A stretch of DNA of 64,000 nucleotides from Escherichia phage muut: the sequence record NC_052657.1; one strand, written 5' to 3'. Positions 8,958 through 44,487 of this stretch are shown here, one piece after another; the stretch's first letter is position 1, and every line of letters begins with the position of its first letter. Below the pieces are notes generated by a model. It made no database searches, was not told the DNA's origin, and saw only the letters and a program-made list of their open reading frames with translations. A program made the position numbers and the translations under genes.

Positions 8958-9388
8958 ATAAATTACTTCAGTGTTACCACAAAGTGACGAACTGCTTTTC
9001 GTGCAGCAGAAGCCAGAGGCTTAGCATACTTAAGTTCATCTTTTTCCATTATAAATTCTCTTTTAAATGAAAATGCAGGACTTATTGGCATTGCCTGCGC
9101 AAGCCCTCAAGGGGAACATAGGTTTTTGTATATTTAACGACCAGGATAACCATAAACCCGTCATCATTCACATTCAAGAGGTACACCATAAAACTGCCGG
9201 GGTCTTAAAACTATAATGATTCGCAAATCATTAATCAGACAGTTCGATGGCTCCTCGATTTTAGCTCACACTAAGGCAGTGAATCTCCAATAAACTAAAA
9301 AATCACTTAAAAAGAACCGCTAGAGTTTGAAGGAGAAAACCATGAGCGAAAAGAGAAATTTTCTCTAGCGATTCCATTTAAATAATCT

Positions 9389-9463
9389 TGGAGCGAGTAA
9401 CAGGACTTGAACCTGCACCTGGAGGGTGGAAACCTCATATGCTACCATTAACACTATACCCGC
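9389..9463 (-). tRNA. tRNA-Gly (anticodon UCC)
   Basis: 75 nt; anticodon loop TTTCCAC, T arm GCAGG-TTCAAGT-CCTGT, acceptor GCGGGTA/TACTCGC with one G-U, CCA. Confidence 0.6.
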
Positions 9464-9518
9464 TTAACAATATTACTCTAACATATTATTAGCCCCTTTG
9501 TCAAGAGGCTTTTAATAT

Positions 9519-9842
9519 TTATTTTAAAATAGTAGATGCACCACGTCTGTTTAGATATGCAACCGTAAAGCTCAAATCACCTATTTCTTCAGGTTCCCAC
9601 TGACCTTCTAAGCCATAACAAGAACAATGATATGCGTGTACTTCATAAAACAAAGATGTTTTCATATCATAGAAATAAACGTGAGATTCGCCTTCATAAT
9701 ATGCACAATCATAAGTGGCAGAAAGAATTACAATGTTATCCTTATCTAACTCTACTTCATAATATCTTTCAACATCTTCAATATCATCAAAACCATCGAA
9801 AACATTGATATTAAAATATTTCTCTAACTCTTTTTCTGTCAC
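9519..9842 (-). CDS. hypothetical protein (about 107 aa) embedded in tRNA array
   Basis: ORF between tRNA-Gly and tRNA-Thr; probable GTG start with AGGGGG RBS. Confidence 0.45.
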   Translation of the reverse strand: MTEKELEKYFNINVFDGFDDIEDVERYYEVELDKDNIVILSATYDCAYYEGESHVYFYDMKTSLFYEVHAYHCSCYGLEGQWEPEEIGDLSFTVAYLNRRGASTILK

Positions 9843-9865
9843 ATACACCCCCTTTAGAGTTAAAT

Positions 9866-9940
9866 TGGTGCTCCCACAAGGACTCGAACCTTGATAAGTT
9901 GCTTACAAGGCAACCGTAATAGCCGTTATACGATAGGAGC
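9866..9940 (-). tRNA. tRNA-Thr (anticodon UGU)
   Basis: 75 nt; anticodon arm GTTGC-CTTGTAA-GCAAC, T arm CAAGG-TTCGAGT-CCTTG, acceptor 7 bp with one G-U, CCA. Confidence 0.65.
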
Positions 9941-10019
9941 AAAATATTTGCTTGGTAGGATTTGATACCTACAATTCTAGAAAATTCTAGAGGTTTCTAT
10001 TAACTCTACAAGCACTATT

Positions 10020-10104
10020 TGGCGATGGATCAAGGATTTGAACCTTGCTAGAACTTTCGTTCACGGATTAACAGTCCGTCGCCCAACCACTAGGCCAATC
10101 CATC
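10020..10104 (-). tRNA. tRNA-Asn (anticodon GUU) with unusually long variable arm
   Basis: Exact acceptor GATGGAT/ATCCATC, CCA, discriminator G; anticodon arm ACGGA-CTGTTAA-TCCGT; 15-nt variable hairpin GAAC-GAAA-GTTC. Confidence 0.5.
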
Positions 10105-10111
10105 TTTAATT

Positions 10112-10198
10112 TGGTGCAGGTAGTTGGACTCGAACCAACGAAGCCCCGAAGGGCAGGAGATTTACAGTCTCCAGCAATTGCCGCTATGCGATACCTAC
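10112..10198 (-). tRNA. tRNA-Tyr (anticodon GUA)
   Basis: 87 nt type II; anticodon arm GGAGA-CTGTAAA-TCTCC, variable hairpin GCCC-TTCG-GGGC, T arm GTTGG-TTCGAGT-CCAAC, CCA. Confidence 0.7.
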
Positions 10199-10203
10199 GT
10201 GTT

Positions 10204-10278
10204 TGGTACATCGTGAAGGATTCGAACCTTCGACCTTGGAGTTAAAAGCCCTTGCTCTACCAACTAAGCTAACGATGT
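10204..10278 (-). tRNA. tRNA-Lys (anticodon UUU)
   Basis: 75 nt; exact acceptor ACATCGT/ACGATGT, D arm GCTT-AGTTGGTA-GAGC, loop CTTTTAA, T arm GAAGG-TTCGAAT-CCTTC; anticodon stem only 3 bp. Confidence 0.6.
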
Positions 10279-10406
10279 ATAAATTATCTTTAAAATAGCC
10301 AGTGTTTGCGGCACTGACTATGAGGTATCGGTAAAATGGCTGCCACCATCTGCCGAAAGTTTACTCTGCTAAAGTAAGTAGCCTCAACGCTACATTAAAG
10401 ATAACT

Positions 10407-10492
10407 TGGCGGTAGATGTAGGACTTGAACCTACACGCCGTTTCCGACGACAGTTTAGCAAACTGTTGTGGCTACCATTTCACCAATCTACC
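10407..10492 (-). tRNA. tRNA-Ser (anticodon GCU)
   Basis: 86 nt type II; exact acceptor GGTAGAT/ATCTACC, anticodon arm ACAGT-TTGCTAA-ACTGT, long variable arm, CCA. Confidence 0.7.
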
Positions 10493-10500
10493 GTTTTTAA

Positions 10501-10653
10501 TTATTCAAAACAACCGGAATCTTTTTGTTCTGCTTTTACCATACGAATATTTTTACCATCTTCAGATTGTTGAAGATTAGAATACTCATAAACAACTTTA
10601 TTATTTACAATCTTAACTCCGGTAACAACCTGTCCAATAGTTTTATAATTCAT
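10501..10653 (-). CDS. hypothetical protein (50 aa)
   Basis: Start moved to internal ATG (AGGAG RBS) because longer track ORF overlaps tRNA-Ser(UGA). Confidence 0.4.
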   Translation of the reverse strand: MNYKTIGQVVTGVKIVNNKVVYEYSNLQQSEDGKNIRMVKAEQKDSGCFE

Positions 10654-10671
10654 AAAGCTCCTAGTTGAATT

Positions 10672-10761
10672 TGGAGGAAGATAATGGAGTCGAACCATCA
10701 CCGTATCACTACAATGGGCCAGGGTTCAAACCTGGTTGCGCACCGCTGCGCCCTACCTTCC
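10672..10761 (-). tRNA. tRNA-Ser (anticodon UGA)
   Basis: 90 nt type II; acceptor GGAAGGT/ATCTTCC with one G-U, anticodon arm CCAGG-TTTGAAC-CCTGG, T arm GATGG-TTCGACT-CCATT, CCA. Confidence 0.65.
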
Positions 10762-10824
10762 CGTTATCATACTTTAAATCTAACATAAAACTATCTTGCT
10801 TGTCAAGCAGTTTTTAAAACTTTT

Positions 10825-10906
10825 TGGCCGGGGTGACAGGATTCGAACCTGCATACTCCAATTACTCGGTTAACGCCTGATTAGAAGTCAGGTGAGATAC
10901 ACCCCG
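10825..10906 (-). tRNA. tRNA-Arg-like (anticodon UCU), non-canonical arm order
   Basis: Exact acceptor CGGGGTG/CACCCCG, CCA, T arm GCAGG-TTCGAAT-CCTGT; UCU hairpin sits right after U8-A9 and a D-loop-like segment follows it. Confidence 0.4.
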
Positions 10907-10978
10907 TTTTCACAGTAACTATAACAAAAAACTAAGTAAATGTCAAGATATTTTTACTAAAAATATTATTTAAATTGA

Positions 10979-11084
10979 AGCCTAGTTATGGAATCGAACC
11001 ATATTTCGTATTTAGTTAGACAAAGCGGTCTAACATATTTTTCAGGCTTTGATGGCCTCGGAATTACCAAATACCCTACTAGGC
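10979..11084 (-). ncRNA. tRNA-like element, about 105 nt, with large insertion
   Basis: Exact acceptor GCCTAGT/ACTAGGC and T arm TATGG-TTCGATT-CCATA, no CCA; inner hairpins AGGC-CATCAAA-GCCT and GTTAGAC-CGCTTT-GTCTAAC. Confidence 0.3.
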
Positions 11085-11086
11085 GT

Positions 11087-11171
11087 TGGTGCAAGTGGAG
11101 GGATTCGAACCCTCAAGCATTTAAGCGTTGCGTTTTAAGCACAATGTGTATCACCAATTCCACCACACTTG
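11087..11171 (-). tRNA. tRNA-Leu (anticodon UAA)
   Basis: 85 nt type II; exact acceptor GCAAGTG/CACTTGC, anticodon arm TTGTG-CTTAAAA-CGCAA, T arm GAGGG-TTCGAAT-CCCTC, CCA. Confidence 0.65.
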
Positions 11172-11286
11172 CATATAGGAGATGCATAGCACCTCCTTTT
11201 AAATGGTGGTTCCCCAGGGTTACAATCCCTGCCCTCGACACTTATGAGGTGTGCGCTCTCGTCAGTGAGCTATGGAACCTTGAATA

Positions 11287-35203: not shown

Positions 35204-35401
35204 ATGATGCTAGATCAACTGATCAATGCTCCTCGCGTAACAGTAAGTCCAAAAACATTTGCATCACTTTTAGAAGATGCTAGAGAGGTTTATAACTTTA
35301 CTGAAGAAGAGCTTCCTGTTCCTGTTAAAAAAGGTTCCAGATGGTTGTTTTATGAAGGTATTATTTTTACTGAAGGGAATAATTGGAAGGAGACTAAATG
35401 A
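35204..35401 (+). CDS. hypothetical protein (65 aa)
   Basis: Start reset to ATG 35204 (AAGGAGG RBS). Confidence 0.4.
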   Translation: MMLDQLINAPRVTVSPKTFASLLEDAREVYNFTEEELPVPVKKGSRWLFYEGIIFTEGNNWKETK

Positions 35402-36387
35402 AATACTTAGTAACAGGTGGTTTAGGCTTTATTGGAAGTGCGGTAGTTCGTTTCCTGGCTAAAAACACTAAGAATGATATTTACGTTATAGATAAATGGG
35501 GTTACGCTTCAGACCCTAGAAATTTATCAGAAACACCTAATGTAAAGTTTTGTCGTGTTGACTTGACAAATGCTCAGTTAACTGCTAAGATTGTGGCAGA
35601 TGTTAATCCAGATTATATAATGCATCTTGCAGCAGAAAGTCACGTAGATAATTCAATAGCATCACCGAGTGTTTTTATAAATTCAAATATTGTTGGAACA
35701 TTTAATCTTCTAGAAGCTGTTCGTTTAATGGGAGATAAATCAAATCTTAAAATGTTTCATCATATTTCAACAGATGAAGTGTATGGTGATCTGGAAGAAG
35801 GGGATTATCCGTTTACAGAACAGAATCCTTATAAGCCAAGTAGTCCATATGCTGCATCTAAGGCAGCAAGCGATCATTTGGTAAGAGCGTGGCATCGTAC
35901 TTATGGTATTCCGACAGTTATAACAAATTGTTCAAATAATTTTGGAGCGTATCATCATCCAGAAAAACTAATACCTAAAACGATAACAAATATTTTGATG
36001 CATAAACCAATCCCTGTTTATGGCAATGGTCTTCAAGTAAGAGATTGGTTATACGTTGACGATCACGCAGAAGCATTACACCTAGTAGTAACTAAAGGCA
36101 AATCTGGAGAAACATATAATATTGGGAGCAGAAACCCTAGAACTAATATTGATGTAATCTATATGATTTGTGATTATATGGATGCGGTGTATCCATCTGA
36201 AACAGATGCTTGTAGCCTCATTGAGATGGTTACAGATAGGCCTGGGCATGATTTAAGATATGAAGTGAATCCTTATAAGATTGAAAAGGAATTAGGGTGG
36301 AAAGCTAAAGGCACATTTGAAGAAAAACTTTATTCAACCATTGATTGGTATGTAGATAACAAAGAGTGGTGGGAAAATAAAGTTTAA
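35398..36387 (+). CDS. rmlB: dTDP-glucose 4,6-dehydratase
   Basis: GGLGFIGS Rossmann motif, [10 protein letters not shown] (YxxxK), [22 protein letters not shown]; collinear with E. coli RffG/RmlB. Confidence 0.9.
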
Positions 36388-36395
36388 GGAGGAGT

Positions 36396-37265
36396 ATGAA
36401 AGGTATTATCTTAGCAGGTGGTAGTGGAACAAGACTTTACCCAGTTACTAAAGGGGTTAGTAAACAACTATTACCAATTTACGATAAACCTATGATTTAT
36501 TATCCACTCTCTGTCCTAATGCTTTCTGGAATTAGGGAAATACTAATAATTACGACACCAGAAGATCAAATTAATTTTGTAAATCTTCTAGGTGATGGTT
36601 CTTCTTTTGGTATTTCCCTACAGTATGCAATACAGGACAACCCAAAAGGTTTAGCAGAAGCGTTTATTATTGGTGAGAGCTTTATTGGTGAAGATTCTGT
36701 AGCACTTGTTCTAGGTGATAATTTGTTCTTTGGTCAGAGTTTTGGTAGCATTTTAGATTCTGCTAAAGAACATATTGAAAAGAATGGTGGAGCTAATATT
36801 TTTGGGTATCACGTAAATGATCCTGAAAGATTTGGTGTTGTTGAGTTTGATTCTGAAGGTACAGTGGTAAGTATTGAAGAAAAACCAAAAGCACCAAAAA
36901 GCAATTATGCAATTACAGGCTTGTACTTTTACGATAATTCTGTTATACAGAAAGCTAAAAGCGTTAAACCTTCTGCTAGAGGGGAATTAGAGATCACAGA
37001 TATAAATGAGATGTACTGGAAAGAAAAGACTTTACGTGTCTGTAAACTAGGAAGAGGTTTCACTTGGCTGGATACAGGAACACATGAAAGTCTTATGGAA
37101 GCATCTCAATTTGTTCATGCAATAGAAAAGCAACAAGGTATGAAGGTTGCATGCCTGGAAGAGATTGCTTTTAAAAATGAATGGATTACTTTAGACTCTG
37201 TAAAAAGTTCTGGAGAGGTTTTAAGTAAAACAGACTACGGTAAGTATTTACTTAAATTAAAATAA
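36396..37265 (+). CDS. rmlA: glucose-1-phosphate thymidylyltransferase
   Basis: [17 protein letters not shown]...[17 protein letters not shown] nearly identical to RmlA N-terminus. Confidence 0.9.
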
Positions 37266-37277
37266 AGGGGGAATTAA

Positions 37278-37832
37278 ATGATTCAAGCAACAAAAATCGA
37301 AGATTTGTTGATCATTCAACCTGACGTTTACGGAGATGAACGTGGTTTTTTCTTAGAAAGTTTTAATCAGGCTTTATATGATCAATACATAGGTAAACAA
37401 AACTTTGTCCAAGATAACCATTCACGTTCTATTCGAGGAGTTCTACGTGGGCTTCATTTTCAAAAGAAAAACCCACAAGGGAAGTTAGTACGTTGTGTTC
37501 GTGGTGAAGTTTATGATGTTGCTGTAGATATTAGGGTTGATAGTCCAACATTTGGAGAATGGGTAGGTGTTCTCTTATCTGAAAAGAATAAAACACAATT
37601 TTGGATTCCTCCTGGTTTCGCTCATGGCTTTGTTGTGATTAGTGACATTGCTGATTTTGAATATAAATGTACAGAATATTACGATCCGACTTCAGAGTGT
37701 AGTCTTGCGTGGAATGATCCAGATATCAATATTGATTGGGGTTTTGATTTAATCTTTAATGATATTAATTTTAAACCTATCTTGTCACAAAAAGATCAGG
37801 AAGCCAAAACACTAAAGGAGATCATATTTTGA
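37278..37832 (+). CDS. rmlC: dTDP-4-dehydrorhamnose 3,5-epimerase
   Basis: YGDERGFFLESF and RGLHFQ cupin motifs typical of RmlC. Confidence 0.85.
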   Translation: MIQATKIEDLLIIQPDVYGDERGFFLESFNQALYDQYIGKQNFVQDNHSRSIRGVLRGLHFQKKNPQGKLVRCVRGEVYDVAVDIRVDSPTFGEWVGVLLSEKNKTQFWIPPGFAHGFVVISDIADFEYKCTEYYDPTSECSLAWNDPDINIDWGFDLIFNDINFKPILSQKDQEAKTLKEIIF

Positions 37833-38659
37833 CAAAATTTTTAATCTTTGGTTCAAAAGGTCAATTAGGACAATCTTTGGCAAAAGTTGCACCAGAAGAT
37901 GTTATTTTGATTGAAGCAAGTGATATAGACATTACCAACTTTAAAGATGTTATGAATAGTCTTGTACAGCACGTGCCTGATGTTGTTGTGAATTGTGCGG
38001 CTTACACGGCAGTAGATAAAGCTGAAGAAGATGTTAACACCTGTATAAATGTTAATGCATACGGTGCAACAAACATTGCCAAAGCATGTAATGATTTACT
38101 GATACAGTTTGTACATATTTCAACAGACTATGTTTTTGATGGGCATGTTGCTGGCACAGAAGATAGTAAAACAAACCCCTTGAACACCTACGGTTACAGT
38201 AAACAATTAGGTGAAACTTTAGTACAAACAGTTTGTCCTACAGCACTTATTATCAGAACAGCTTCTGTTTATAGTGAATTTGGACATAACTTTTTGAAAA
38301 CTATGTTGGAACGCTACAACGGTGGTCAAAAAGAATTTAATGTAGTATGTGATCATTTATCATGTCCTACTTATGCACCTGATCTTGCAGAAACAATTTT
38401 TAAACTTGTAAAAGATGGTGTAAATAGTAAAATTGTACACTATGCAGGTGCAGATTATATTTCTTGGTATGATTTTGCACGAAAGATATTTCTTGTTATA
38501 GATTTATCTGTTACAGTTAATCCTGTATCTGCTTCAACCTATAATTCCAAAGCAGTCAGACCAGCAACATCTTATTTAAAAACAGATCCTACTTTAAATC
38601 CGCGAAGTGTTGATAGCGGTATTGTAAGAACTTTAACTATACTTTTAAACAAGGAGTGA
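37829..38659 (+). CDS. rmlD: dTDP-4-dehydrorhamnose reductase
   Basis: N-terminal IFGSKGQLG Rossmann motif, STDYVFDG; completes rmlBACD order. Confidence 0.8.
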   Translation: MTKFLIFGSKGQLGQSLAKVAPEDVILIEASDIDITNFKDVMNSLVQHVPDVVVNCAAYTAVDKAEEDVNTCINVNAYGATNIAKACNDLLIQFVHISTDYVFDGHVAGTEDSKTNPLNTYGYSKQLGETLVQTVCPTALIIRTASVYSEFGHNFLKTMLERYNGGQKEFNVVCDHLSCPTYAPDLAETIFKLVKDGVNSKIVHYAGADYISWYDFARKIFLVIDLSVTVNPVSASTYNSKAVRPATSYLKTDPTLNPRSVDSGIVRTLTILLNKE

Positions 38660-39621: not shown

Positions 39622-40374
39622 ATGGGAAATAAAACCGCAAAGGCTCGTCGTCAATCAGCAGCCAATGATGACAAACGTGCCAGTCGTTATGCGGCTAAAG
39701 CAGTAGGAAATGATGATTACCGTCTTGATGAATTTACCCCTGTTGGGAATCAAGAAGCTATTGTAAGAAGCATGGTTTGGAATGATTTAACCATTGTTAA
39801 TGCCCCAGCAGGAACAGGAAAAACGACAACAGCACTATGGAAAGCATTGCAAATGCTTAAAGCTGGTGATTTCAGAAAGTTGATTTTCCTTAAAAACCCG
39901 ACAGAAGTAGGTGATGATCAAATTGGTTTCTTATCTGGAGATAAGACTGATAAACTAGCAGCACATTACGAATCAACTAAAAGAATTTTCCAACAGTTTA
40001 TGACTGCAAATAAATTGGAAAACGATATTGCAAGTGGCAAAATTGAACTTAATATTCCAAACTATGCACTAGGTGCTACGTGGGATAACAGCATTATTCT
40101 TATTGATGAAGTTCAACTTATGTCACCAAATACAGTAAAACTTCTCCTTGAGCGAGCAGGTCTTAATACACGTATTGTCATTATGGGTGATGTTAATCAA
40201 ACATATGCAATTAAACGAAGAGCTAATGGGTTAGGTGATTTGTTAGATCGTGTTGTTCCTATTAACGAAGAAGGAGAAAGGGAAGCTATTGTAGATTTTA
40301 TTGGTTATGTTGAAATGACAACTGCTGATAACCAACGTTCCCGTTTGTCTCAGTTCATCACGGAAGTATATTAA
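39622..40374 (+). CDS. phoH: PhoH-like ATPase
   Basis: Walker A NAPAGTGKTT and Walker B-like IILIDEVQ. Confidence 0.8.
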   Translation: MGNKTAKARRQSAANDDKRASRYAAKAVGNDDYRLDEFTPVGNQEAIVRSMVWNDLTIVNAPAGTGKTTTALWKALQMLKAGDFRKLIFLKNPTEVGDDQIGFLSGDKTDKLAAHYESTKRIFQQFMTANKLENDIASGKIELNIPNYALGATWDNSIILIDEVQLMSPNTVKLLLERAGLNTRIVIMGDVNQTYAIKRRANGLGDLLDRVVPINEEGEREAIVDFIGYVEMTTADNQRSRLSQFITEVY

Positions 40375-40410
40375 TAATTACAAGGCAAGGATGCCTGTTA
40401 TGGAGGTTAA

Positions 40411-40902
40411 ATGACGCTAATTGAGATTGATCGCAATGGTATTGATGAATGCTATCAAGCTGGCTTAGTTAAGCCGAATGAGTTTAGACAGATTTATATT
40501 GACAAGATTGAAAAAGAAATATCTCTTCGTTTAGAGAACATGGCAACTTTGCAAAAAGTTCAGATGTTTTTTAGTTGGTTGAAAGGAGAGGATTGGCTAA
40601 CTAAATATTACCAGGAATTATCTGATAGTCAAGAAGGCTTGTTTGAGTGTATAATAAATGTAGCTGGGTCTAATTCAGAGTTACTCCTGATTGATGAAGA
40701 AGATTCTAAACTTCTTTTTCTTAGCAGTATTTTTCACAAGAAATCTATGTTAGTAAGAAATTGCAGTGATTTACTAAATCATCCACTAACAAGAACTAAT
40801 AAAATTCTTGTGGATAAAGAAACACTAAGAGCTATTGATTACCTCCGTAAATATGTAAGCGGTGGTAAAGCAGTCCTTAAAACACTACAGGAGGAAGTAT
40901 AA
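40411..40902 (+). CDS. hypothetical protein (163 aa)
   Basis: Track ORF. Confidence 0.45.
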   Translation: MTLIEIDRNGIDECYQAGLVKPNEFRQIYIDKIEKEISLRLENMATLQKVQMFFSWLKGEDWLTKYYQELSDSQEGLFECIINVAGSNSELLLIDEEDSKLLFLSSIFHKKSMLVRNCSDLLNHPLTRTNKILVDKETLRAIDYLRKYVSGGKAVLKTLQEEV

Positions 40903-41555
40903 TGACAACAATTATTGCAACACGTAACAAAATTTTGTCTGACGGTAAGGTAACAGTAGGTAGTCGTGTAGACACTTTAAACTTCAAGAAAGTGCGTAAA
41001 ATTGGGGACTACCTTGTTGGTGGTGCAGGACGTCTGTCTTCTATCCTGACTTTCTTTTCTTGGTTTGAACAAAACTTACAATGCCAGGCAGCACAAGAGA
41101 CAATCCCAGGTTTGGTGATCCAGTCAGATCCCGATAAAGAAGATGAAGAGTTTGTGGCATTGGTTGTTCATCCAGACGGTAAAATTTATATGCACGAGGG
41201 TAATAATCCAACGCGAGCATATCCTTTAACTGAAGATTATTATGCTGTTGGTAGTGGGGCAGATTTTGCTTTAGCAGCTTTAGATGCAGGGGCAACTCCA
41301 GAAGAAGCGATGGAAGTTGCAAAACTGCGAGATGCTTTTTCCGGCGGTGAAACTTTTATCGAAGAGATCGAAGAACAACTGGAGTTAACAGCGGAAGATA
41401 TTCTGAACTTCAGCAAGGAGCAACTAATTAGTATGCTGTTGACTGGTGATCCTGATAGCGATGAAGCTGAAAGTATTTTAGCAGAAATGAAAGAATCACA
41501 AGAAAAAGTATTGACAGTCTCTGAAAAACTTGATAAAGTGTCCTCTGATAATTAA
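40902..41555 (+). CDS. HslV-like Ntn-hydrolase peptidase with acidic C-terminal extension
   Basis: N-terminus MTTIIATR (Thr2 nucleophile), KKVRKIGDYLVGGAGR and YAVGSGADFALAALDAG parallel E. coli HslV. Confidence 0.5.
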   Translation: MTTIIATRNKILSDGKVTVGSRVDTLNFKKVRKIGDYLVGGAGRLSSILTFFSWFEQNLQCQAAQETIPGLVIQSDPDKEDEEFVALVVHPDGKIYMHEGNNPTRAYPLTEDYYAVGSGADFALAALDAGATPEEAMEVAKLRDAFSGGETFIEEIEEQLELTAEDILNFSKEQLISMLLTGDPDSDEAESILAEMKESQEKVLTVSEKLDKVSSDN

Positions 41556-41564
41556 TCTAGTATA

Positions 41565-41585
41565 AACCCCCTCAAGGGGGTTATT
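41565..41585 (+). terminator. putative terminator hairpin
   Basis: AACCCCC-tcaa-GGGGGTT followed by ATTAGG; T-run weak. Confidence 0.4.
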
Positions 41586-43027: not shown

Positions 43028-43690
43028 ATGAAGTTTGTACTGTATCATCGACTTTCTAAGAAGAAACAACAAGGCAACCAGTATGGTATAGAATCACAGG
43101 AAGCAGATATCCAACGCTTCCTGGATTCACAAGAAAATTATACTATTGTAGGTAGCTTTGCAGAGTTTTATTCTGGTAAAGGCGATTGGAAGCAACGTAG
43201 AGAGCTTGTAAAAGCTGTTAATCTTTGCAAAGAAACAGGTGCTACACTTGTTGTTGCTAAGGTTGACCGTCTTGGACGTAACACAGCTTCTGTTGCAACC
43301 TTGTTAGAGATGATTAATGTACGGATAGCCACTATGCCCTCCGCTGAAAATATGATAATAAATATTTTAGCAGTTCTGGCAGAAGAAGAGGCTCGTGCAA
43401 TATCTGATCGTGTTAAGAAGAGCCTTAAGGTAGCAAAAGCGAAGGGAACGCTTCTTGGTGCAGCAAACCCTAAATACAAAAGAACAGATTATACGAAAAC
43501 GGAAGAAGCAAAACGCTCAAAAGAGTTTGCACTTTCTTTAAAAGATTCTTTAGTTGCATACAGAGCTTGTAAAACGCCATATATGACGATTGCAAAGCAT
43601 CTGAATGAATCAGGAAAGAGAACTATTCGTGGGAGTTTGTTCGATGCCAAAGCGGTACAACGTCTTTGTGCAAAATTGAATATTAAATAA
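43028..43690 (+). CDS. serine recombinase (resolvase/invertase family)
   Basis: N-terminal YHRLSKKKQ (catalytic Ser), VVAKVDRLGRN, C-terminal HTH-like region. Confidence 0.7.
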   Translation: MKFVLYHRLSKKKQQGNQYGIESQEADIQRFLDSQENYTIVGSFAEFYSGKGDWKQRRELVKAVNLCKETGATLVVAKVDRLGRNTASVATLLEMINVRIATMPSAENMIINILAVLAEEEARAISDRVKKSLKVAKAKGTLLGAANPKYKRTDYTKTEEAKRSKEFALSLKDSLVAYRACKTPYMTIAKHLNESGKRTIRGSLFDAKAVQRLCAKLNIK

Positions 43691-43914: not shown

Positions 43915-44487
43915 ATGCGTTTAGCTTTTAACGGGAAGATAAGCACAGCAAACATATTGTCAGCAGTAGGATTATTAGGTAAAAAATTCACACCTTTCAG
44001 TTTACCAGTTTGTGTAGATTTTGATCATGTGTTTGATATTAATAATCCTTCACGTTGTATCGCCAGAAGTAATATTGATAACCCAAGTGAAAATCTGTTT
44101 TATATTACTAAACCATCCCAAGCAATTTTGAATCAATGGGAAGCAGGTCTGATTAAACCAGGTAAATATTTTGCATTACTACCTTGTAAATCATTGGCTA
44201 TAGAGGACAGTCTAAACTATGCAAACAATCTTGTTGTTACAGCATTCATTGTCTCAGAAAAAGAAGAAACTGCGGCACTTGCAAATACTGTTAAATCTTT
44301 GTATGATGCTTTGGGTGTTACTTACACTACCTTCGTTTGTGAAGATATTCCACATTGCGTTGAATTTGTGGTGAATGGTGTAACTGTATGTCGTGTAGAA
44401 ACAACTCAAGACGAAGACGTTTTTATTACTGTAGCCGATGTAATATCTGAACCTGTGTTTAGCTACGCAGTTTCATTAACACATTAA
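43915..44487 (+). CDS. hypothetical protein (190 aa)
   Basis: Track ORF. Confidence 0.45.
   Translation: MRLAFNGKISTANILSAVGLLGKKFTPFSLPVCVDFDHVFDINNPSRCIARSNIDNPSENLFYITKPSQAILNQWEAGLIKPGKYFALLPCKSLAIEDSLNYANNLVVTAFIVSEKEETAALANTVKSLYDALGVTYTTFVCEDIPHCVEFVVNGVTVCRVETTQDEDVFITVADVISEPVFSYAVSLTH

Follow-up and report, generated by a model that had tools for sequence, protein, structure and literature searches.

A predicted N-terminal-threonine peptidase of Escherichia phage muut resembles the compact phage proteasome homologues rather than HslV

A 64,000-nucleotide stretch of DNA from Escherichia phage muut (NC_052657.1), the whole of which is referred to here as the window, carries a gene whose product (the muut protein) is predicted to be a proteasome-like peptidase with an N-terminal threonine nucleophile. 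A first-pass annotation, made from the letters alone, had read this gene as an HslV core that could hijack the host unfoldase HslU or act alone in proteolytic takeover of the cell. Sequence comparison and structural modelling instead assign the muut protein to the compact phage type described as PPH; by the same comparisons it is not an HslV orthologue, and the label 'HslV' is misleading or at least imprecise. The overall picture that we favour, with a confidence slightly better than even, is that of a catalytically competent PPH-type threonine peptidase that would form homomeric rings, work independently of HslU and have an accessory role. The gene and its predicted catalytic core are as follows.

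40902..41555, plus strand: open reading frame (ORF) of the predicted phage proteasome-like (PPH-type) N-terminal-threonine peptidase, 217 aa plus stop, orthologue of phi92 gp058.
40905..41366, plus strand: N-terminal-nucleophile (Ntn) hydrolase core, proteasome beta-like, residues 2-155, delimited from alignments, an AlphaFold2 model and a fold search; the catalytic equivalents within it are Thr2 (=T1), Asp14 (=D17), Lys30 (=K33), Gly40/Gly43, Gly117-Ser118-Gly119 (=S129) and Arg143-Asp144-x-x-Ser147-Gly148-Gly149 (=D166/S169/G170).

The ORF list and the nucleotide sequence agreed on an intact 217-codon reading frame that begins MTTIIATR, with threonine directly after the initiator methionine, as had been claimed. 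The muut protein matched PHROG 1040, 'peptidase HslV family', from end to end (expectation value, E = 1.3e-61), and the Pfam family Proteasome (PF00227) at 25.1 bits against a gathering threshold of 22.4. Its top sequence matches among PDB chains were HslV proteins, namely that of T. maritima (1m4y, E = 5e-8) and those of E. coli and H. influenzae (about 1e-5), and one of the HslV alignments took in the shared MTTI N-terminus. These matches lie far beyond chance and bear out the first-pass annotation in its statement that segments of the protein parallel E. coli HslV. A single-chain AlphaFold2 model, built on 59 homologues, had a mean predicted local distance difference test score (pLDDT) of 84, rising to 90-98 for most of residues 1-155. 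When the fold was compared by Foldseek, 20S beta subunits, HslV and BPH were all returned with a probability of 1.00, 952 PDB chains were matched at E<=1e-3, and the template modelling score (TM) normalised to HslV was approximately 0.65. The model, the fold search and the PF00227 match together gave the alpha-beta-beta-alpha Ntn fold of the proteasome/HslV superfamily; the fold prediction that had been proposed as a check on the annotation therefore returned an Ntn fold. We regard the assignment of the muut protein to this fold and family as virtually certain.

The residues required for catalysis were also retained. In an alignment of 24 diverse sequences, which included E. coli HslV and Vibrio phage homologues at 33-34% identity, the invariant columns were M1, T2, T3, D14, K30, G43 and G117-S118-G119, matching Thr1, Asp17, Lys33, the glycine motif and Ser124/129 of HslV and the proteasome. 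Residues G40, D144, S147, G148 and G149 were conserved at 90% or more in a 59-sequence alignment. The segments AVGSGADFA...LRDAFSGG aligned with SVGSGSVYA...YRDAYSGG of proteasome beta5, an alignment that places Asp166, Ser169 and Gly170, and the complete Thr/Asp17/Lys33/Gly47/Ser129/Asp166/Ser169 active-site set of the superfamily is retained in the muut protein. Since the whole set is kept down to about 30% identity, it can be argued that catalysis is the selected function, and we consider it probable that the protein is proteolytically active. With both the fold and every catalytic position in place, the earlier claim of a phage-encoded proteasome-type Ntn peptidase stands. An M-T-T start was found in almost all of approximately 146 family representatives, which argues that there is no propeptide. 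The host methionine aminopeptidase would remove Met1 and so bare the threonine as nucleophile, as in E. coli HslV, for which the removal of Met before Thr by this enzyme is established.

A profile search of six-frame translations found no second proteasome-like gene in the genome; as only one such gene is present, the rings into which the protein may self-assemble would be homomeric. A different arrangement was seen in Aeromonas phage 4L372D (NC_048771.1), which has two adjacent PHROG 1040 genes (L012:4432-4983 and L012:5001-5885). The first encodes a divergent protein of 183 aa with a TTG start, an M-T-C-I-I N-terminus and G-C-G in place of G-S-G, and the second a 294-aa long form with a conserved C-terminal module. 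Such paired genes in Aeromonas phages suggest a two-subunit assembly; the phi92-like genome has the one gene.

The relatives of the muut protein were collected by a profile search over 1.84 billion cluster representatives, which gave 7,548 relatives at E <= 1e-3. Long forms of about 180-350 aa made up most of the top 57 (E <= 1e-30), and next came many proteins of 137-157 aa that were 30-37% identical to the muut protein. Every short representative (<=165 aa; 63/63) and every long one (60/60) was closer to the muut protein than to E. coli HslV, the median scores being 59 bits (short) and 89 bits (long) to the former and 18 and 32 bits, respectively, to the latter. In a library of viral structures, 50 models had the fold at E <= 1e-3, jumbo-phage proteins included, and two compact Caulobacter-phage proteins, from CcrBL9 (146 aa) and CcrColossus (131 aa), matched at a TM of 0.83-0.88. 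Homologues were found by tblastn in 165 phage records, with identities of 95-100% in phi92-like phages, approximately 72-80% in phAPEC8-like and Klebsiella phages and approximately 34-41% in Aeromonas, Vibrio and Shewanella phages. Among bacterial genomes, one per species (185,579), close relatives occurred in a single 425-bp contig only. The long-form homologue looks virus-restricted, unlike RPC as described.

PPH and RPC are among the 22 new proteasome homologues catalogued by Fuchs, Alva and Lupas (2021; PMC8665760). Like PPH, the muut protein is phage-borne (Caudovirales), falls in group I (related to HslV and BPH), retains the catalytic triad and has a compact core in which H2 and S12/H5 appear to be missing, again with no propeptide; its nearest non-orthologous relatives, at 137-157 aa, are of the PPH size class. 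It differs from PPH in length, PPH having about 140 residues whereas the 217 aa of the muut protein comprise a core of approximately 155 and a 62-aa extension made up of a two-helix module and an acidic tail. The PPH-like core without H2 and the presence of a C-terminal extension that matches no known structure are shared with RPC, which, however, has been reported only from proteobacterial genomes and as more divergent than PPH, whereas the family studied here is phage-borne. BPH (PDB 5OVS/5OVT) is likewise a group I protein with an acidic pore loop and no known unfoldase, but it forms a heptameric double ring, contains H1 as well as H2, its pore loop is much longer, and its TM to the muut model (0.47-0.54) was lower than that of HslV (0.64-0.67). 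The 20S beta subunits, for example beta5, have the same fold and the same RD-x-x-SGG motif (RDAFSGG versus RDAYSGG); compared with them the muut protein is much smaller, lacks a propeptide, an alpha-subunit partner, H2 and H5, and is only marginally similar in sequence.

The likeness to HslV itself comprises the Ntn fold, Thr1, the equivalents of Asp17, Lys33, Gly45 and Ser124, and the best PDB sequence matches. In the NCBI HslV equivalog models NF003964 and TIGR03692, which have cut-offs of 137 and 157.75 bits, the muut protein scored 34.0 and 31.6 bits, respectively, a shortfall of over 100 bits in each case, against 303.3 and 287.5 bits for E. coli HslV run as a control. In the alignment with HslV the first beta-hairpin was shorter by 4 residues, and 9 residues were missing after the GSG motif. 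In the AlphaFold2 model a long helix H1 (residues 45-67) was followed, where HslV has H2, the second of the two apical helices that make up its HslU-facing side, by a coil containing Pro and Gly (residues 68-83, ETIPGLVIQSDPDKEDEE) that was modelled with moderate confidence (pLDDT 72-82). This coil includes the following feature.

41127..41150, plus strand: acidic loop DPDKEDEE, residues 76-83, aligned with the HslV pore segment (approximately 83-90, with R86/L88/R89/K90); coil, lower pLDDT.

The surfaces through which HslV is engaged by HslU were largely changed. The C-terminal tail of HslU sits in grooves between adjacent HslV subunits (PMC7468587), where Phe54, Phe57 and Gln114 accommodate it and Ala79/Lys80, which belong to helix H2, lie close by (PMC6429459; E. 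coli/H. influenzae). These positions (F54/F57/Q114/A79-K80) mapped to L49/F52/P108/Q74-S75, the last of them non-helical, so that only Phe57 is kept. The position of Lys28, which from the H. influenzae HslUV structure we take to bind the HslU C-terminal carboxylate, aligned with Thr25 in a variable column. At the pore, Arg86, Leu88, Arg89 and Lys90 of HslV were replaced by the acidic DPDKEDEE. In HslV, which is gated by HslU, the pore loop is short; that of BPH is long and acidic, and BPH has no known unfoldase (Fuchs et al., PMC8665760). Taken together, the loss of the pocket, the apparent absence of H2 and the acidic pore segment make canonical docking of HslU unlikely, and independence from HslU seems to us moderately probable. 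That the muut protein acts alone is plausible.

These data bear directly on the possibility that the muut protein is a surrogate for HslV, forming hexameric rings as HslV does, docking these to the HslU hexamers of the host and so redirecting the ATP-dependent unfoldase to substrates chosen by the phage. Several observations are in keeping with this: HslV chains gave the best PDB sequence matches and the two HslV equivalogs the best NCBIfam matches, the pocket residue Phe57 is conserved as F52, no phage unfoldase was found, and all known hosts are gamma-proteobacteria, which have HslUV. However, the scores fall more than 100 bits short of both HslV cut-offs, the source of Ala79/Lys80 in the HslU-tail pocket (H2) is absent from the model, Gln114 has become Pro, Phe54 has become Leu and the presumed anchor Lys28 is a variable Thr. 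The hairpin deletion, the acidic residues in place of basic and hydrophobic pore residues, and the closer relationship to the compact phage homologues than to HslV point the same way. We consider this alternative unlikely. The first-pass proposal of an HslV core hijacking host HslU is accordingly not upheld by the equivalog scores, by the region of H2 or by the pocket, and its 'HslV' label gives way to the compact phage homologues with which the protein clusters; an extra C-terminal module and the lack of an hslU gene further distinguish it from HslV.

The C-terminal extension of the muut protein has two parts.

41382..41456, plus strand: conserved C-terminal two-helix module, residues 161-185, LTAEDILNFSKEQLISMLLTGDPD, preceded by an acidic linker.
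41457..41552, plus strand: variable acidic tail, residues 186-217, net charge -5, low-confidence helix.

The family consensus of the module was LTxExxxxMSKEELLxxLFG, and in the AlphaFold2 model its helices spanned residues 164-169 and 172-181. Among approximately 58 long-form representatives the plan of the extension was constant (acidic linker, two-helix module, acidic tail); the module was kept in nearly all of them, and the tails, 30-220 residues long, had net charges of -2 to -35, with one exception to the acidity. In the muut protein residues 151-217 contain 19 D/E and 5 K/R, a net charge of -14, and E. coli HslV ends opposite approximately residue 158, in agreement with the earlier description of an acidic C-terminal tail that HslV lacks. 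No Pfam family recurred in the tails of 45 long forms, and a profile of the two-helix module found nothing significant among PDB sequences. An assignment of the module as HeH/SAP-like, based on two isolated weak matches, is no more than a lead. In proteasome-like proteins the C-terminus as a rule faces away from the assumed ring and is a possible interaction site (Fuchs et al. 2021, PMC8665760), and a recruitment or docking role is inferred for the module and tail. In the mechanism that we favour, the acidic DPDKEDEE loop would line the pore of the ring, the module and tail would face outward and recruit a substrate or partner, and unfolded or loosely folded polypeptides would be cleaved without HslU, as by BPH.

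The same architecture could be read more ambitiously. The long forms may be self-contained targeting proteases that need no unfoldase, in which a ring of PPH-type subunits captures specific basic host proteins through the outward-facing module and the acidic tails and degrades them early in infection, nucleoid-associated or defence proteins being candidate targets; in enterobacterial phages the 163-aa protein encoded directly upstream would serve as a regulator or adaptor. If true, substrates would here be delivered to a proteasome-like chamber in a new way, and phages would have a new mechanism for countering the host; we think it quite improbable. Just as improbable, in our estimate, is that the protein does not degrade at all and is instead a specific processing enzyme, a transpeptidase or ligase (compare connectase) or another amidohydrolase, with one target recognised through the C-terminal module. 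The proteasome-like family does include the monomeric specific ligase connectase and many forms predicted to be ringless (PMC8665760), the conserved module resembles a specific docking element, and either the target or a cofactor might be the small conserved protein encoded next door. On the other hand, the muut protein has no insertion over the active site comparable to the S3/S4 two-helix element on which the specificity of connectase depends, the residues that it retains, including the Asp166/Ser169 equivalents, are those of proteolytic beta subunits, and the 163-aa neighbour is not conserved in Vibrio and Aeromonas phages that keep both enzyme and module.

The preferred reading, a degradative peptidase with an accessory role, was also considered against the genes and signals around it.

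40411..40902, plus strand: ORF of a 163-aa all-alpha protein (phrog_14834), directly upstream of the peptidase gene and kept there in enterobacterial-type relatives.
40889..40894, plus strand: strong, consensus Shine-Dalgarno sequence AGGAGG, 7 nt 5' of the ATG, read from the sequence.
41567..41580, no strand assigned: G+C-rich hairpin CCCCC-TCAA-GGGGG, 11 nt 3' of the peptidase stop and 5' of the Shine-Dalgarno sequence of the next ORF.

The peptidase ATG (40902-40904) overlaps the TAA stop of the upstream 163-codon ORF by one base (TAATG), an overlap compatible with translational coupling, and the 163-aa protein is a candidate partner of the peptidase, possibly coupled to it in translation. 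The hairpin has a weak T tract on either strand, and in the records of two related phages, Paula and PATM, the stretch matching it is annotated with a 'terminator' feature. Upstream on the same strand the block consists of nucleotide-sugar enzymes, glutaredoxin, a T4-type lysozyme, a PhoH-like ATPase and then the 163-aa ORF; downstream of the peptidase it continues with a 142-aa ORF, an adenine methyltransferase, a serine recombinase and a metallophosphatase. The order ribonucleotide reductase (RNR), glutaredoxin, lysozyme, PhoH, small ORF(s), peptidase recurred in metagenomic relatives in which the peptidase was 41-51% identical, and the order from lysozyme to peptidase, which all the relatives examined had, was also present in Vibrio phage VnaP and in Aeromonas phage 4L372D. 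DSL-LC04, an unrelated phage of 61 kb whose homologue is of the short form, had no PhoH nearby. PhoH was rejected as a functional partner on these grounds, the gene order being inherited long-range synteny of a broad lineage. In a PADLOC search for defence or anti-defence similarity, neither the peptidase nor the ORF on either side of it gave a match.

No HslU-like ATPase was present among the neighbouring ORFs, as the first-pass annotation had stated. No HslU, ClpX or Lon is annotated in the window, and neither these nor FtsH in the full genome of phage VivaForever, whose protein is 100% identical to that of the window. The VivaForever genome does encode, outside the region corresponding to the window, two paralogous AAA-type ATPases of about 380 aa (phrog_2376; L008:31623-32750, minus strand, and L008:46730-47890, plus strand), which matched PF00004 at 38.9 and 29.4 bits and have a Walker A motif GTKGSGKT and a Walker B motif DEFD. 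They have no aromatic-hydrophobic-Gly pore-1 loop and only marginal similarity to p97 and spastin, and phrog_2376 occurs in 378 phage records, many of them from Gram-positive (Herelleviridae-type) phages without a proteasome homologue; for these reasons they were rejected as a dedicated unfoldase.

A natural deletion variant bears on the importance of the gene. Relative to the window, the record of phage VEcB (MT932211/NC_052663; locus MT932211.1 20948-22820) has a 1,130-bp deletion, equivalent to 39966..41087 of the window, the breakpoints of which lie in two copies of the 8-bp direct repeat GCAGCACA, a signature of a microhomology-mediated event. The resulting gene, vecB_055, encodes 267 aa in which residues 1-114 of PhoH run on in frame into peptidase residues 63-217; half of PhoH, the entire 163-aa ORF and Thr1, Asp14, Lys30 and Gly43 of the peptidase are lost. 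A second, independent VEcB record (OZ035773, 148,885 bp) is intact. Because the deleted record comes from a propagated stock, the phage can apparently do without all three genes, and the peptidase gene appears dispensable in the laboratory. Such dispensability suggests that the function is accessory and depends on conditions, and speaks against an essential part in takeover; with it the first-pass suggestion of proteolytic takeover is left as speculation. Given also the nucleotide-metabolism/lysozyme/PhoH block in which the gene lies, an accessory role seems the most likely one, and would consist in remodelling the proteome of the infected cell or counteracting a host factor.

The deletion also bears on two further explanations. 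Large myoviruses need a capsid (prohead) maturation protease, and the muut protein is a peptidase homologue. The gene, however, lies approximately 38 kb from the head genes, on the opposite strand and within the block just described, a VEcB stock without the catalytic N-terminus was propagated and sequenced, and a homologue of the XkdF-type S78 peptidase is encoded beside the portal and major head genes. This other 163-aa ORF, by the portal gene (2398..2889, minus strand), matched Peptidase_S78_2 (XkdF-type) with E 2.6e-11 and is likely the prohead protease, although a related record calls it 'DNA methyltransferase'; a prohead role for the muut protein is effectively refuted. The 371-aa ORF that adjoins the S78 homologue (1280..2395, minus strand) had no Pfam match and is possibly a scaffold. 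Dispensability would also fit a catalytically dead decoy or scaffold, in which the acidic tail, strongly acidic in almost all relatives, mimics nucleic acid or titrates a host factor and the Ntn core is an oligomerisation platform. Catalytic residues that are invariant, or nearly so, down to approximately 30% identity would be unexpected were catalysis irrelevant, and we consider a decoy very unlikely.

Several considerations weigh against the picture of an active, HslU-independent PPH-type peptidase. On their own, subunits of the proteasome type generally have no activity before they assemble (Fuchs et al. 2021, PMC8665760), and the activity, oligomeric state and substrates of the muut protein are all inferred; a literature search gave annotations only, with no functional study of this protein or of any PPH-type protein. 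The region that replaces H2 is the least confident of the core (pLDDT of about 72), so that the absence of H2 depends on one model and a Pro/Gly-rich sequence, and the loss of pocket residues is compatible with a different mode of HslU docking. The assignment relative to PPH and RPC rests on their published descriptions, not on the reference sequences WP_042125023.1/WP_140207863. In principle, the loss in VEcB might be compensated, or the deleted form might be only a minority genotype.

That phages have proteasome homologues was known before, as were the gene and its family label. The window belongs to a phi92-like myovirus: over the 4 kb around the gene it was 100% identical to Escherichia phage vB_EcoM_ESCO9, and 53 other phi92-like phages (Justusliebigvirus, Stephanstirmvirinae) matched at 98-99.6% identity. 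The gene is labelled 'peptidase HslV family' in RefSeq phi92 (gene 058), VivaForever, alia and others, 'putative 20S proteasome' in Paula, ECGD1 and PD114, and elsewhere 'putative nucleophile aminohydrolase'; in the BASEL phages EmilieFrey, JohannJBalmer and PaulScherrer, the genes of which are identical or nearly so, the label is 'putative proteasome component'. Phage genomes with HslV but without HslU have been noted previously (PMC7823757), and the gene is merely listed in PMC12210895. As a sequence finding the present result therefore adds little, the gene and its family assignment being public, and contains nothing surprising to a specialist. What is added is the placement with PPH rather than HslV, the loss of most HslU-docking determinants, the architecture of the tail and a deletion that points to dispensability. 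Phage proteasome homologues are widespread, and this gene offers an entry point to the use that viruses make of a proteasome-like chamber, to what such enzymes degrade and to whether they need an unfoldase: the E. coli and BASEL phages are tractable, the catalytic set is complete, the tail module is delimited and a natural deletion variant exists.

Some minor observations were made on related records and elsewhere in the window. Four records of 'Campylobacter phage' A150, A145, C3 and A110a (MG065639, MG065645, MG065656 and MG065689), which are unannotated and give Campylobacter jejuni as host, were 98.5% identical to E. coli phi92-like phages in this region and are probably mislabelled or contaminant coliphages. 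The nucleotide-sugar enzymes upstream of glutaredoxin (35398..38659, plus strand) comprise an epimerase, a dTDP-4-dehydrorhamnose 3,5-epimerase and an RmlD-like reductase, and a related record also lists four glycosyltransferases elsewhere in the genome; together they may point to DNA, or a structure on the host surface, being modified with sugars. The serine recombinase downstream of the peptidase (43028..43690, plus strand) is a DNA invertase homologue in a strictly lytic phage and has the same relative position in distant relatives (L004-L006). A 190-aa ORF (43915..44487, plus strand) carries the automated label 'histidyl tRNA synthetase', which occurs again in the genome, and had no Pfam match. 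Fifteen tRNA genes are clustered at 8242..11279 on the minus strand (Ile, Met x2, Leu x2, Phe, Pro, Gln, Gly, Thr, Asn, Tyr, Lys and Ser x2).

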